A stretch of 64,000 nt of DNA from Octopus vulgaris (Eukaryota), in NCBI GenBank assembly GCA_951406725.2, contig OX597825.1, positions 21,142,001-21,206,000 of the forward strand, given 5' to 3'. Positions 12,815 through 40,025 of the stretch are shown here, piece by piece. Under the pieces are notes generated by a model that did not search any database, had not been told where the DNA came from, and worked only from the letters and a program-made list of their open reading frames with translations. Made by a program: the position numbers and the translations under genes. Every line of letters begins with the position of its first letter. The first letter of the stretch is position 1.

Positions 12815-14414
12815 ATATATTAATAAAAAGAATTCCAACCTTGTCTGATTTTCACGTTTTATTTACAATCTTATAATGATATATTATAAGATAATATATT
12901 ATAATTGAATAAAATAAAATGAAATAGTAGAATGTTAAATATTCATTCTGATTGAACTAGTACTTTCATGCATTGAATTCTGCAATCTTCGGGTTCATGT
13001 AGTAGTGTTGACAGTCATGCTTCACAATTTTTGACTGTAGCAAGATGAGTGATTCTGTGCTATAAATACAGCTGGGTAGGCTCCAGAGTGCTAGGTTTTG
13101 CAAACTGTATTCTGACCAATCAGTGTGTAGTATCACTCAATTACTTAAGCTGATTGGTTGGTTGAGCTGATTGGTTTAGGCATCATGCTTTGTTGGACAG
13201 GTCAAGAGTCCTGTATCTTGACCCTGGCCGAAGCAGCAATTGTTGGGTTATTTTTAGAAATGTTGTAAATATCCTTTGTCAGAGATTTTTATATTTTTAT
13301 ATTTCAATTGTCATCATCATCATTGTCAGCACCTTGATTATTGTTGCTAGTGGTGATGGTGGTGGCAATAGAACTTTTAACCCTAAATAAGATAATTTTC
13401 CTGCTATCTTCGTCTTGATCACCTTTAGTATTGTTGTTGTTGTTAGTGGTCATGGTCGTAGCAGTGGAAGTAATACCTCTAAGTATTATTATTATTGCTT
13501 ATTTAGCTTGGGTTCGAATTTATCAATAAAATTCTTTTCTCTGATTTTCCTCTCGATTTCACTTGGGCTGTGTAATTTGTAGAATGGAAATATTATATAT
13601 ATTTTCCGACCACATGTTGCTAGGTGGTTACTCAAAGGTATCTGACGGACCTCTGGGTCTCTAATCTGTTGCCGGTGTACACGTGAGCGTTCTAATAGTG
13701 CGTTTCCCGTCTGACCTACATATATTTCTTCACAATTTGGGCATTTGATGCAGTAAATTAAATTTCTGCTTTTGCAGTTCATATTCGCGTTTGTGAATAT
13801 TTTCCCGGTTTTTGTGTTTATATATTGACCGGTATGTATGAATTGGCATGTGCCACATCGGCTATCATTGCATTTAGATACCGTGAATGTTTGGTCTTTG
13901 TTGCTGAGGTCAAATTTTGCCTTTGTTAGTAATGTTTTCAAGTTTTTAGGCTGTCTTTTACTAAGCACCATAGCTCGATCCTTGATTATGTCTTTTAATT
14001 CATTACTTTGGGCAATGATTGGAAGGTTTGCTTTGGCAATGTTGAAGATATTCTGGTGACATGGGTTGTGTGTCACTATGAATGGTATGACTTGTTCTTG
14101 TTTTCCTCTTCCTTGGGTCGTCCTAAGTTGTTGTATAGGTATTTTTATAGCCCGCTGTATGCCATTTTCTATAAGTAGAGATGGGTATTTTTGTTTGAGC
14201 AAAAATTCTCTTAGTTCTATTAGGCGTTTGTTCCTGATATTTGCATCTTCTACAATAGTACAAATTCTTCTGGCTAGGCAGTATGGGATGTTACGTTTTG
14301 TATGTGGTGGATGGCACGACTTAAAATTTAGGTATTGATGTGTGTCTGTGTGTTTATAGTATATATCTGTGGTGATGGTGGTGTCTTTTTTAATTACCAT
14401 TATATCCAGGAATG
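12815..14414 (-). repeat. left arm of 1600-bp inverted repeat (partner 16654-18253)
   Basis: mirror coordinates sum to 31068; mirrored ORF-track entries are identical over the shared span; both ends checked base by base. Confidence 0.95.
12953..12997 (-). ncRNA. mirror copy of the PLE-2 hammerhead-like motif
   Basis: part of the inverted arm. Confidence 0.65.
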
Positions 14415-15342
14415 CGAAAAATATGCTGAAATACATTCGAAATGGATATCTTTAGCGGCACCCATACTTCCTCGGAAGTACCTAATTAAAGAAATTGCAG
14501 GAGAACCAGAGGAAGAAACTAAACTTCGATGGGACCTTAGTTTGATAAAATTCAGGACCGACATCTCCATTACCCTGTCTAAACAATCCCGCTACAAAGC
14601 CAAATACGAAGCTATCGATGATCAAATCAGAGATGAAATATCCAAACTAACGACCGGCAATATAGCAGAAAAAATGCGAGAACTATGGATCAGAGATATC
14701 TCAAAAGAAGAAAGCAGATCAAGAAAGTTTTGGCAGCGGAAACAATTATTTCTCGACAAATATGCTACAAATTACGGTAAAGACACCAGAACTCCGAGAA
14801 ATAGCATTAAAAGTGGACAACCTCACCAACGCAACATACACCAGAACACGTGGCAACATGAACACCCGTTTCACCACGAATCGAAGACGAACTACGGTAA
14901 GAACTCTTCCCATTTTGTATGCAAACACCCTAATGCACACAACATGAACAAAAAGCACAAACAAAATAGATATTGTTTTGTACAGACCATTAGCAGTAGA
15001 AATAACAGGAGATCATTTTCAAGACCTCAACAGAGATTACCCACAAGAAACTGGACAAAAAACCGATCTAGATCTAGAAGTAAACCCAGATCATTTCTCC
15101 AGGTGGTTAAAAACAATGCTAACAAGAAATTGAAAAGTAGCATACATAATACCAAAAACAAGACAGAAAACATAACGAAACCAAGTAAAGTACCACAACC
15201 AAAACGCAAAATTCATCAAGCAAACATCAACAGGAATATAAATCATAACCAGAAAAAAATCCATTTTTTTACGTCAGGACAACAAACACCGGAGAAAGAA
15301 AAAATCCAAGAGGAAACATACCCCAAACAACTGAACGTATAG
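14415..15342 (+). CDS. PLE-2 upstream ORF (5'-truncated); helical segment followed by a basic N/R/S-rich segment
   Basis: open for ~310 codons from the inversion junction; the track start at 14335 lies in the inverted arm and is artificial. Confidence 0.6.
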
Positions 15343-17576
15343 ATCCTAAAATAATTAATTTATCAAAAAGAGATCTTGACAATGATGAAATCCAACTTCT
15401 GTCAAAAGGACTGAAATTCACACCTACACCAACAGCCAACCACCAAGAATTAAAGGAGGATATCCAAAAATTCTGTCGAAAATTACGACTTGTAGAATTC
15501 TTCGCTAACAAAAGTAATGAGATTGATGAATCCCTAGTAAGGAATAAATCAAATTTCACCCCACCAAAAGGAAGAAATAACTACCTTGACCAATACATTG
15601 ATATCCTGTCTAAATTTCCCCTTAGACGCAATACCAATGTTAGGCCAAACATTAGCAAATCAGAGATGTCTGCATGTAAACGTATACAAAACGATCAAAC
15701 AATAATAATTAAACAAGCAGATAAAGGTGGTGCAATTGTTATTATGGATACCGAATACTATAAGGATTTGGTTGAAGACCAACTGAAGGATACAACCTTC
15801 TATTGTGAAATACCCGCAAATATAGACCACCACATCATGAAAAAGATCAACAACCTGATTTCAACACACCACAACTCACTTACGGATAATGAAAAAGACT
15901 ACATCACCAATTTTGAACCAAAACCCAGCAACTTCTACGGCTTACCAAAAATACACAAATCAAAAAACATTCAACAGGCAGTAAAAGAACAAGAAAGTGA
16001 GTACATAAAATTATTACATCCAAAAGACCTAAAACTTAGACCTATTATAGCTGGTCCAGCATGCCCTACACACCGTCTAAGCAATTTTATTGACATTGTT
16101 TTGAAACCACTATGTACTTACATACCAAGTTTCATCAGGGATGACATCGACTTCCTGTCCCATCTTCCCAAAACAACAGAAACAAATTCAGTTTTGCTAA
16201 GTTTTGATGTGGTAAGCCTCTACACCAATATTCCACACGATTTAGGAATAAAGGCGATTAAATACTGGTTAGAAAAACATAGAGAAGTGATTCCCAGCAG
16301 ATTCACAGTGCCATTTATATTAGACACAGTCAAACTTATTCTAGAAAATAACACATTCTTCTTCAATGGAAAGAATTACATCCAAATTAGAGGCACGGCG
16401 ATGGGAACGAGGTTTGCTCCCGTTTACGCCAACTCTGTAATGGGATACTTAGAAGAACAACTCTACCAAGAGGTGGAGGTAAACTATGGCACTGGATTTA
16501 GAAAGTATATTGAAAAGGCATGGAAGAGATACCTAGACGACTGTTTCATAATCTGGACAGAATCTCTAAATACTCTGGAAGAGTTCAATATCCTCCTGAA
16601 CAACCTACACCCATCTCTCAAATTTACAAAGGAGATGAGTAGTACCAAATTACCATTCCTGGATATAATGGTAATTAAAAAAGACACCACCATCACCACA
16701 GATATATACTATAAACACACAGACACACATCAATACCTAAATTTTAAGTCGTGCCATCCACCACATACAAAACGTAACATCCCATACTGCCTAGCCAGAA
16801 GAATTTGTACTATTGTAGAAGATGCAAATATCAGGAACAAACGCCTAATAGAACTAAGAGAATTTTTGCTCAAACAAAAATACCCATCTCTACTTATAGA
16901 AAATGGCATACAGCGGGCTATAAAAATACCTATACAACAACTTAGGACGACCCAAGGAAGAGGAAAACAAGAACAAGTCATACCATTCATAGTGACACAC
17001 AACCCATGTCACCAGAATATCTTCAACATTGCCAAAGCAAACCTTCCAATCATTGCCCAAAGTAATGAATTAAAAGACATAATCAAGGATCGAGCTATGG
17101 TGCTTAGTAAAAGACAGCCTAAAAACTTGAAAACATTACTAACAAAGGCAAAATTTGACCTCAGCAACAAAGACCAAACATTCACGGTATCTAAATGCAA
17201 TGATAGCCGATGTGGCACATGCCAATTCATACATACCGGTCAATATATAAACACAAAAACCGGGAAAATATTCACAAACGCGAATATGAACTGCAAAAGC
17301 AGAAATTTAATTTACTGCATCAAATGCCCAAATTGTGAAGAAATATATGTAGGTCAGACGGGAAACGCACTATTAGAACGCTCACGTGTACACCGGCAAC
17401 AGATTAGAGACCCAGAGGTCCGTCAGATACCTTTGAGTAACCACCTAGCAACATGTGGTCGGAAAATATATATAATATTTCCATTCTACAAATTACACAG
17501 CCCAAGTGAAATCGAGAGGAAAATCAGAGAAAAGAATTTTATTGATAAATTCGAACCCAAGCTAAATAAGCAATAA
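15249..17576 (+). CDS. PLE-2 reverse transcriptase / GIY-YIG endonuclease; frame open from 15249, first ATG at 15666
   Basis: IINLSK..L...EIQLLSKGLKFTP upstream of the ATG; ADKGG, FYGLPKIHK, RPII, FDVVSLYTNIP, GTAMGT, RYLDD, CNDSRCGTC, LIYCIKC..C..IYVGQT. Confidence 0.93.
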   Translation, partial: PEKNPFFYVRTTNTGERKNPRGNIPQTTERIDPKIINLSKRDLDNDEIQLLSKGLKFTPTPTANHQELKEDIQKFCRKLRLVEFFANKSNEIDESLVRNKSNFTPPKGRNNYLDQYIDILSKFPLRRNTNVRPNISKSEMSACKRIQNDQTIIIKQADKGGAIVIMDTEYYKDLVEDQLKDTTFYCEIPANIDHHIMKKINNLISTHHNSLTDNEKDYITNFEPKPSNFYGLPKIHKSKNIQQAVKEQESEYIKLLHPKDLKLRPIIAGPACPTHRLSNFIDIVLKPLCTYIPSFIRDDIDFLSHLPKTTETNSVLLSFDVVSLYTNIPHDLGIKAIKYWLEKHREVIPSRFTVPFILDTVKLILENNTFFFNGKNYIQIRGTAMGTRFAPVYANSVMGYLEEQLYQEVEVNYGTGFRKYIEKAWKRYLDDCFIIWTESLNTLEEFNILLNNLHPSLKFTKEMSSTKLPFLDIMVIKKDTTITTDIYYKHTDTHQYLNFKSCHPPHTKRNIPYCLARRICTIVEDANIRNKRLIELREFLLKQKYPSLLIENGIQRAIKIPIQQLRTTQGRGKQEQVIPFIVTHNPCHQNIFNIAKANLPIIAQSNELKDIIKDRAMVLSKRQPKNLKTLLTKAKFDLSNKDQTFTVSKCNDSRCGTCQFIHTGQYINTKTGKIFTNANMNCKSRNLIYCIKCPNCEEIYVGQTGNALLERSRVHRQQIRDPEVRQIPLSNHLATCGRKIYIIFPFYKLHSPSEIERKIREKNFIDKFEPKLNKQ

Positions 17577-39624: not shown

Positions 39625-39847
39625 AAACATACAAATTTCCGCACGAAGACACGTAGTCTATGCCCTAGGGACGTAGCTTCAACCGTGTTCTTTCTGATGT
39701 GAATTTGCTACCCAGGTATCGGTTATCTTTCGAATTATCCTTAATAAGATAATTCATTCAATTATATATATATATATATATATATATATATATATATATA
39801 TATATATATATATATATATATATATATATATATATATATATATCTAT

Positions 39848-40025
39848 GGAGAGTTTACGAAAAGAACAAAAGACGAAGGCGGGTGGTGTAGACAACAAAC
39901 AGATGTATTAGTACAACGCTCAGGAATAGAAAAAGTCTTTTACGTTTCGAGCCTACGCTCTTCTACAGAAAGGGACACAGAAAAACAAAGAGAGAAACAA
40001 GGAGAGAGAAAAAAAGGAGAGAATA
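39848..40025 (-). mobile_element. solo 3' end of the PLE-1 family with a hammerhead-like motif at 39936-39973
   Basis: CCUUU CUGUAGA A GAGC-GUAG-GCUC GAAA CG UA AAAGA; flanked by TA repeats. Confidence 0.75.

Follow-up and report, generated by a model that had tools for sequence, protein, structure and literature searches.

We analyzed a 64,000-nt window of the Octopus vulgaris genome (GenBank assembly GCA_951406725.2, contig OX597825.1, positions 21,142,001 to 21,206,000 of the forward strand; "the window" means this whole stretch), which contains four elements that each consist of two arms in opposite orientation next to a (TA)n tract. A previous sequence-only reading had joined these four elements into one system, in which the protein of a Penelope-like element (PLE), here called PLE-2, mobilizes several short RNAs in trans. 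Comparison with further copies in the 2.8-Gb genome (where the window lies on contig C12) showed that the four elements are four unrelated families residing in TA microsatellites, i.e., three coding PLEs (PLE-2, PLE-3 and PLE-4) and one non-coding family with a tRNA-like promoter (T). A fifth unit, R, lies alone between TA tracts. The features are as follows (SINE, short interspersed nuclear element; ORF, open reading frame; RT, reverse transcriptase).

PLE-2 and its target
12596..12757, plus strand: 5' half of the host SINE (both SINE halves match 13 intact window copies, where microsatellite alone separates them)
12784..12819, no strand: (TA)18 target tract, left side (tract scan)
12820..14414, minus strand: inverted arm, unit positions 2677-4271, ending at the proximal site without tail
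12953-12997: hammerhead motif in the inverted arm
14411..18248, plus strand: direct arm, 5'-truncated, positions 434-4271 of the 4271-nt unit (unit from tandem copies L114, L121 and L123)
14411..15342, plus strand: ORF1 remnant, start lost (430 aa from the ATG in whole copies)
15249..17576, plus strand: ORF2, 775 aa, RT and C-terminal GIY-YIG, overlapping the ORF1 end in the -1 frame
18071..18115, plus strand: predicted type I hammerhead, core CCGAAGA, palindromic helix III (motif scans)
18249..18279, plus strand: 31-nt tail, right arm only (in tandem copies followed by an internal (AT)6 and ORF1)
18280..18379, no strand: (TA)50 target tract, right side (tract scan), followed by the SINE 3' half at ~18406-18620

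T unit
21289..21395, minus strand: inverted arm
21393..21533, plus strand: direct arm with A-box-like sequence at 21408, B-box at 21453 and a T5 run
21539-21576: (TA)19

PLE-4
25437-25448: (TA)6 adjoining the left arm
25449..25549, minus strand: left arm with tail, ~35 nt of the tail deleted
25550..25609, plus strand: right arm, proximal-site end, no tail
25605-25644: (TA)20 beside the right arm

PLE-3
39262-39313: (TA)26 beside the tail-less arm
39314..39526, minus strand: tail-less arm, its 5' end within the 5'-end pile-up of the family
39371-39455, minus strand: type I hammerhead motif (motif scan)
39528..39762, plus strand: tailed arm, tail at ~39621-39762 (the part missed previously)
39763-39842: (TA)40 beside the tailed arm

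R unit
46628..47109, plus strand: non-coding tandem unit (535 nt, nearly complete) flanked on either side by TA tracts
46771-46852: type I hammerhead motif (fold z -4.1)

The inverted arms, the outward orientation of the outer ends and the presence of (TA)n on at least one side of each element had been read correctly, but all four boundaries had been misdrawn. The PLE-2 arms indeed show no mismatch over a 1600-nt alignment (12820-14414 vs. 16654-18248); the element, however, extends to 18279 through the tail of its right arm. The hammerhead mini-element described at 39311-39624 has the arms and the type I motif but ends at 39762, the additional ~140 nt being the family tail. The palindrome at 25489-25609 is real, but its left arm begins near 25449 with a partly deleted tail, and the tRNA-like element described at 21313-21531 was recovered with an extent of 21289-21533. 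Where solo hammerhead ends had been reported in TA tracts, we found one, i.e., the R unit, which lies beyond the coordinates (12815..39973) of the proposed system. Hammerhead calls throughout are based on motif scans and cleavage is predicted.

Tails, arms and target sites

For each family, the best 40 candidates per search were scored (from first-look totals of 1664, 486 and 307 for the three small elements and 985 for PLE-2); two-armed insertions and tails were classed by a script for PLE-3, PLE-4 and R and by eye for PLE-2. A tail was present on exactly one arm in 83 of 88 two-armed insertions (PLE-3, 35/37; PLE-4, 29/30; R, 10/12; PLE-2, 9/9). The other five showed a rearranged or deleted end, and both tails or neither were seen in 0/88. 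For the 73 insertions from families searched with tail-free queries, an independent 50:50 choice of tail is excluded, with the split among single-armed PLE-2 copies as baseline. The tailed arm was the further-reaching arm in 25 of 61 insertions across the four families (14/30, 6/17, 2/5 and 3/9).

Tails measured 31, ~75, ~100 and ~150 nt in these four families, with no shared fold (z from 0.5 to -2.0); AU-rich motifs were found at both sites from which copying would start. As the sequence-only reading had stated, the four elements are unrelated in sequence, and we found no end sequence common to the families. Its expectation that outer ends would be fixed, with inner junctions and arm lengths varying between copies, was borne out as well. 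Within PLE-2 insertions, the two arms differed at 6 of 14158 sites, compared to 40.7 differences expected between insertions, and 20 derived sites were shared (10 insertions).

The window is dense in TA tracts. The proposed (TA)n enrichment was confirmed by the single-armed PLE-2 copies, in which (TA)5 lay within 15 nt of 16 of the 22 element-free 5' ends (random positions, 1.9% and 6.3%); (TA)n is therefore the target and not a synthesized tail. Outer ends touched (TA)5 in 65/74 cases for PLE-3 and in 52/60 for PLE-4.

PLE-2

PLE-2 is a young PLE of predicted Neptune type. The copy in the window interrupts a SINE at its internal (TA)n/(TG)n microsatellite, which served as the target, and the inverted and direct arms overlap by 4 nt at their junction. 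The idea that SINEs spread (TA)n landing pads thus holds for this copy, but it applies to only ~3 of 28 other PLE-2 insertions (rough count), i.e., SINE microsatellites are a minor source of PLE-2 targets. All 40 scored matches were identical (100% over 351 nt) and located on one contig. They represent 31 insertions, of which nine are two-armed and 22 (~70%) single-armed, the latter divided into 11 tailed and 11 tail-less copies. Exactly one tail was present in each of the nine two-armed insertions with both ends visible (eight of the sampled nine plus the window copy). The script's call of two tails for L121 was rejected as an artefact of a cut reference, the arm in question running on to a tail-less end.

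ORF2 combines the RT and GIY-YIG matches that mark endonuclease-containing (EN+) PLEs (Pfam RVT_1, E = 2.3e-6, below the cut-off; GIY-YIG, E = 2.7e-5, above the cut-off). Partial tandems, an inverted 5' copy and a one-sided tail, which are also EN+ PLE traits, are all present. Instead of a single ORF, however, all copies read contain two overlapping ORFs in a -1 frame relation, and a contig from an independent run is gapless at this overlap. The overlap covers ~90 nt (15249-15342), includes a seven-T run and is the same in all copies read but one. As the first ATG of ORF2 falls after conserved N-terminal motifs, a programmed frameshift at the overlap appears likely. A published figure legend (Craig 2021, Fig. 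1; PMC8557442) allows a frameshifted ORF1 in some PLE types; we found no report of a frameshifted Neptune ORF1 in the open-access literature. ORF1 matched no Pfam family, and its ESM Atlas matches were all below 0.9 and to unnamed mollusc proteins.

The Neptune assignment is by motifs, read by eye: GLKF, DKG, a CX4CxxC linker and CCHH before and in GIY-YIG, which resemble the Neptune rows in the supplement of PMC8557442. PLE-2 differs from this clade by its two overlapping ORFs and by a C in place of U4 in the hammerhead core. Stems I and II of the motif at 18071-18115 fold (z -0.07). All 40 scored copies have the same substitution at the conserved U4 position, and stem II has a T-T pair at its base in each of them.

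PLE-3 and PLE-4

The mini-element at 39.3 kb and the palindrome at 25.5 kb had been treated as separate short elements. They are instead stubs of PLE-3 and PLE-4, two separate Hydra-type PLEs that each have their own predicted RT/GIY-YIG gene. For PLE-3, the upstream extension of longer copies reaches GIY-YIG and RT domains with Hydra-type motifs (L116), i.e., by eye, DKT, RWL, no CCHH, and CxxC and CxH in the endonuclease; the CxCX5C linker was not seen in the single broken copy read. PLE-4 has a ~75-nt tail that continues into a Hydra-type ORF, a hammerhead motif ~110 nt upstream of its proximal end, and RT/endonuclease genes in L145-L148 and L155 (by eye, DKT, RWK, CxCX5C, no CCHH, and CxxC and CxH). 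Long Asn-rich stretches between RT and endonuclease occur in both PLE-3 (L116:3929-5008) and PLE-4 (L145-L147).

Both families share DKT, RW(K/L), the absence of CCHH, CxxC/CxH, a hammerhead motif and (TA)n targets with the Hydra clade, including Hydra-1_Obim (PMC8557442), and PLE-4 also shares CxCX5C. They differ from the families published there, as two of their RT motifs gave 0 matches in the available part of the supplement of that paper, and their units, with the Asn-rich stretches, are longer than the <3 kb usual for the clade. Asn-rich stretches have been reported for rotifer PLEs (PMC3846280).

A proximal end was paired with a distal end in 35 of 37 two-armed PLE-3 insertions, and the remaining two had one rearranged end. 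Among 30 PLE-3 arms sampled on the basis of the hammerhead region only, eight started within one 15-nt window and six within the next 63 nt downstream, and no start fell in the 63 nt preceding the window. We read this pile-up as the 5' end of the RNA; a strong RT stop would look alike. The single two-armed PLE-4 insertion that departs from the one-tail pattern (29/30) is the window copy with its partly deleted tail.

Short PLE-4 copies have a fixed start (within ~15 nt) in 26 distinct insertions among 30 loci. In these copies, the first 27 nt are joined directly to the hammerhead exon and a 1316-nt segment (GTAAGT...TTTTAG) is absent, whereas long copies keep the first 27 nt, this GT-AG segment and the hammerhead exon. 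The coding copy L147 carries an initiator-like start and an acceptor downstream of the ORF as well. The two arms of an insertion always agreed: both were spliced in six insertions and both unspliced in eight (two of which may represent one duplicated locus), and 0/14 were mixed; two further insertions had an arm too short for classing. Since both the start site and an intron are known to lie in the leader of Penelope, most transcripts of which are spliced (PMC2377424; PMC8557442), the short copies are most simply explained as putative run-offs of a spliced leader.

Further PLE-4 derivatives with internal deletions (L126, L130, L139, L141, L142 and L149) have the ORF start joined to the 3' end at variable points, and such derivatives form short tandems, one locus having a period of 281 nt. 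The two-armed PLE-4 insertions L308 and L309 (4.8 kb each, ~373 kb apart on contig C1) are near-identical, match in their flanks and are probably a segmental duplication; the 326-nt block between their arms is unrelated to the neighbor of either arm.

The non-coding units T and R

Among the elements examined, only T and R look non-coding and non-autonomous. T belongs to a non-coding tandem unit of ~300 nt, as upstream-extended copies re-enter the previous unit, and the family consists of partial tandems and head-to-head pairs. The A and B boxes of the T consensus stand at tRNA spacing, an arrangement seen in 0 of 20000 shuffles with a pattern that was written after the sequence was seen. Likeness to 17 genomic tRNAs was weak (best, 0-3 of 200 shuffles). 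ARAGORN found no tRNA in the window, and Rfam found neither a tRNA nor a hammerhead in two other T copies. An Rfam search of the window gave, among the matches listed (150 of 268), microsatellite-driven miRNA matches alone, and a search of three short stretches gave neither hammerhead nor tRNA. The sense strand of T contains no hammerhead core; a hammerhead-like core on the antisense strand was rejected, stem I being absent.

T ends fall into three AT-rich classes. Of 25 two-armed T clusters, 20 could be classed, and 17 of these had two different end classes and three the same. T copies are ~75-92% like the consensus; the arms of the window copy are ~10% apart (10 differences in 98 nt), and the closeness of arms within T insertions is weak. 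No coding part was attached to T in 64 loci. PLE fragments near 2 of the 64 loci were rejected as helpers, lying 0.9-1.1 kb away with other sequence and a TA tract between. T has the A and B boxes of a tRNA-derived SINE, located mid-unit; a 5' tRNA head, a simple 3' tail and a single-unit structure are lacking, with tandem and inverted copies and three end classes in their place, and the hammerhead per unit that marks retrozymes is lacking too. We consider it somewhat more likely than not that T works like a non-autonomous PLE passenger. T resembles retrozymes and non-autonomous Chlamys elements such as MRC1 in being a non-coding tandem unit (PMC7229834; 10.64898/2026.07.22.740005) but differs by its A and B boxes, with no hammerhead found.

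At one T locus, the A/B-box module (L036:1490-1625) is enclosed by a predicted long stem with the T5 run on its 3' side (z -0.76, no better than shuffles). At another, L185:1100-1400, the 3' end of a different PLE, with a U3-A8 core-type hammerhead motif, adjoins a T insertion.

R arrays comprise up to four or more units, and proximal and distal ends were paired in 10 of 12 two-armed R insertions. R shows the retrozyme features of being non-coding, arranged in tandem and provided with a type I hammerhead motif in every unit; its 535 nt compare with the 170-400 nt reported for retrozymes, and it shows the inverted-arm and tail signature of PLEs directly (PMC7229834; 10.64898/2026.07.22.740005). 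These papers view retrozymes as PLE derivatives and suspect PLEs as helpers. A PLE fragment was seen at 1 of 20 R loci, outside the array. R is thus the best case for the earlier idea of mobilization in trans, and trans-mobilized non-coding units (T and R) probably exist in this genome. The summed contig depth of R (46630-47110, run X2) went into the thousands in one run, taken by guess to be RNA, and was roughly one hundred or several hundred in two other runs, also of guessed type; this is only a hint of abundant R RNA.

Other features of the window

A broken Neptune-like PLE with an RT end and GIY-YIG, ~25-40% like PLE-2 and interrupted by microsatellite, lies at 1193-2744 (minus strand). 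Broken RT fragments of the long interspersed nuclear element type are found at 55744-58037 (plus strand), and tandem arrays with a ~185-nt period, made of a SINE-like segment, at 59251-60233 and 62367-63333.

Insertion mechanism and alternatives

We consider it probable that two-armed insertions arise when an RT/GIY-YIG enzyme nicks both target strands and copies one sense RNA twice, from a proximal and a distal site. The family's enzyme, predicted to act as a pair, would nick both strands of a (TA)n tract. As (TA)n is self-complementary, the two nicked ends would not differ from each other, and either could base-pair with AU-rich motifs, which are present at both start sites. One strand would start at the proximal internal site and the other at the distal site, both on the same sense RNA, and the tail would be the sequence between the two sites, which accounts for its presence on exactly one arm. 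The end points of the two cDNAs would be unrelated, and a head-to-head junction would link them, often via a 2-6 nt overlap; failure of one cDNA would leave a single arm, tailed or not at 50:50. Start sites would also lie in the RNA leader, and copying from there would therefore run off the 5' end and produce short, sometimes spliced stubs, which the elements at 39.3 and 25.5 kb most likely are. T and R would be non-coding tandem RNAs that borrow such an enzyme.

The families and their boundaries, the one-tail rule, the arm identity, the splice state and the target bias are what was observed; from these we infer that the enzyme is a dimer, that target ends pair with the AU-rich motifs and that a single RNA molecule is copied. 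The earlier suggestion of priming at both ends of a cut is supported by the arm comparison, the one-tail counts and the splice state. Twin priming is the simplest model given the one-tail counts, the closeness of arms and the finding that the Poseidon PLE protein PAc cuts and extends both strands in vitro from two internal start sites bounding the tail, with a predicted dimer (PMC11167929). A fuller version, in which twin priming on one sense RNA is obligate, stubs come from spliced leaders, introns are kept via an unspliced downstream repeat and T units are SINE-like riders, is tentative, and we would put its chances slightly short of even.

Several points weigh against twin priming. The model is built from sequence, with the enzyme, the RNA ends and cleavage predicted, and all full-length PLE-3 and PLE-4 ORFs seen are broken. 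Arm identity could also reflect gene conversion between the arms, or two RNAs transcribed from a single active locus, and it is a weak effect in PLE-3 (46 differences within insertions vs. 62.6 expected between) and no effect in PLE-4 (18 vs. 20.6). In vitro, the start sites of PAc are used alike on both strands and have no homology to the target, so neither strict site pairing nor a (TA)n pairing step is predicted by that work; here the sites are AU-rich like (TA)n and used one per arm. The script assigned the same end class to both arms of three of the 20 classed T insertions, the window copy included, and the share of T ends touching (TA)5 is low (26/79 vs. 2.3% by chance). No clear 5' pile-up was seen among the PLE-2 copies examined. 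As AG|GT occurs at either end of the spliced PLE-4 junction, a DNA deletion or template jump could give the same letters, and the 60-nt arms of the window palindrome are too short to reveal their own splice state. Samples are the best 40 matches per search rather than whole families; the initial PLE-3 and PLE-4 queries were biased toward inverted copies, and the R query included the tail, pre-selecting one arm.

Among the alternatives, the least improbable, though still unlikely, is that the arms form by fold-back, i.e., by snap-back of cDNA or self-priming of an antisense RNA, after which the endonuclease would trim the hairpin before its insertion. Self-priming of this kind, on an antisense template, and resolution by endonuclease have been proposed (PMC3846280 and PMC8557442, respectively), and such a process would yield identical arms with matching splice states without a second priming and fits the junction overlaps and palindromes. 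Simple snap-back, however, predicts a tail on the further-reaching arm in every case (seen in 25/61) and, since half of the copies start without a tail, pairs lacking any tail (0/88), and spliced copies require a sense template; a variant in which the endonuclease trims both hairpin ends asymmetrically may be considered. Slightly less likely is the descent of the short PLE-4 copies from one master mini-element with a single deletion, spread in trans by PLE-4 without recurrent splicing. The AG|GT overlap, the 92-100% likeness of the short copies and the existence of other PLE-4 deletion derivatives, with variable junctions and some in 281-nt tandems, speak for it. Conversely, the missing segment is equipped with a complete donor and with an acceptor rich in pyrimidines, and it begins 27 nt after the fixed 5' end, which is the layout published for the Penelope leader intron (PMC2377424, PMC8557442); some short copies share exon-1 variants with a different long subfamily (L280 and L282 vs. 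L311).

That one PLE-2 protein mobilizes several unrelated short RNAs in trans, as originally proposed, is very unlikely. PLE-2 is young and abundant (40/40 identical matches), target and architecture are common to all families, T and R units have no coding part, and trans action by PLE ends has been published (PMC3846280). Two of the three small elements, however, belong to other PLEs with their own Hydra-type genes, the ends have no sequence in common, tail lengths differ, and T copies (~75-92% like the consensus) and PLE-2 copies (>99% alike) indicate bursts of different age. As a trans source, moreover, the window copy of PLE-2 lacks the first 433 nt of the unit. The idea that the elements are ordinary miniature inverted-repeat transposable elements (MITEs), DNA transposons with terminal inverted repeats or assembly chimeras has a negligible probability in our view. 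Small size and inverted ends suit MITEs, but copies vary in element size, arm length and inner junction, tandems and asymmetric ends occur, 22 of 31 PLE-2 insertions are one-armed and the arms have diverged in older families; this reading is already refuted for PLE-2, PLE-3, PLE-4 and R. None of the small elements is single-copy, and opposite-strand PLE-2 joints are also present in contigs of an independent run.

Relation to known PLEs and significance

Inverted copies, one-sided tails, a (TA)n bias of Hydra and Naiad elements and non-autonomous derivatives are already known for PLEs (PMC8557442), the general layout of which is restated in PMC8969392. Opposed hammerheads 100-700 bp apart have also been reported (PMC4209133), and for an octopus 31 PLE families with recent activity have been listed, the available text giving no structures (PMC13282606). 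The tail-pairing counts are new as far as our searches show: compared to EN+ PLE insertions described before (PMC8557442, PMC3846280, PMC2377424), the one-tail pattern has here been counted and proved strict, tail lengths extend to 75-150 nt rather than 30-40, and many genomic copies lack the leader intron that these elements are described as keeping. We found no strict one-tail count, spliced genomic PLE copy or PLE passenger with a tRNA promoter in print in the open-access literature.

PLE stubs such as those at 39.3 and 25.5 kb are liable to be filed as MITEs or as separate mini-elements, and PLE-2, being very young, is a good source of active protein. Overall, the four-element system proposed earlier is a known kind of element wrongly assembled into one, and the regularities at the family level bear on the open question of how PLEs insert. 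Inverted arms, tails and intron retention are stated as open questions in the available text of PMC8557442, PMC11167929 and PMC3846280; for a PLE in vitro, our counts predict one proximal and one distal start per event, on one molecule of a sense and sometimes spliced template.

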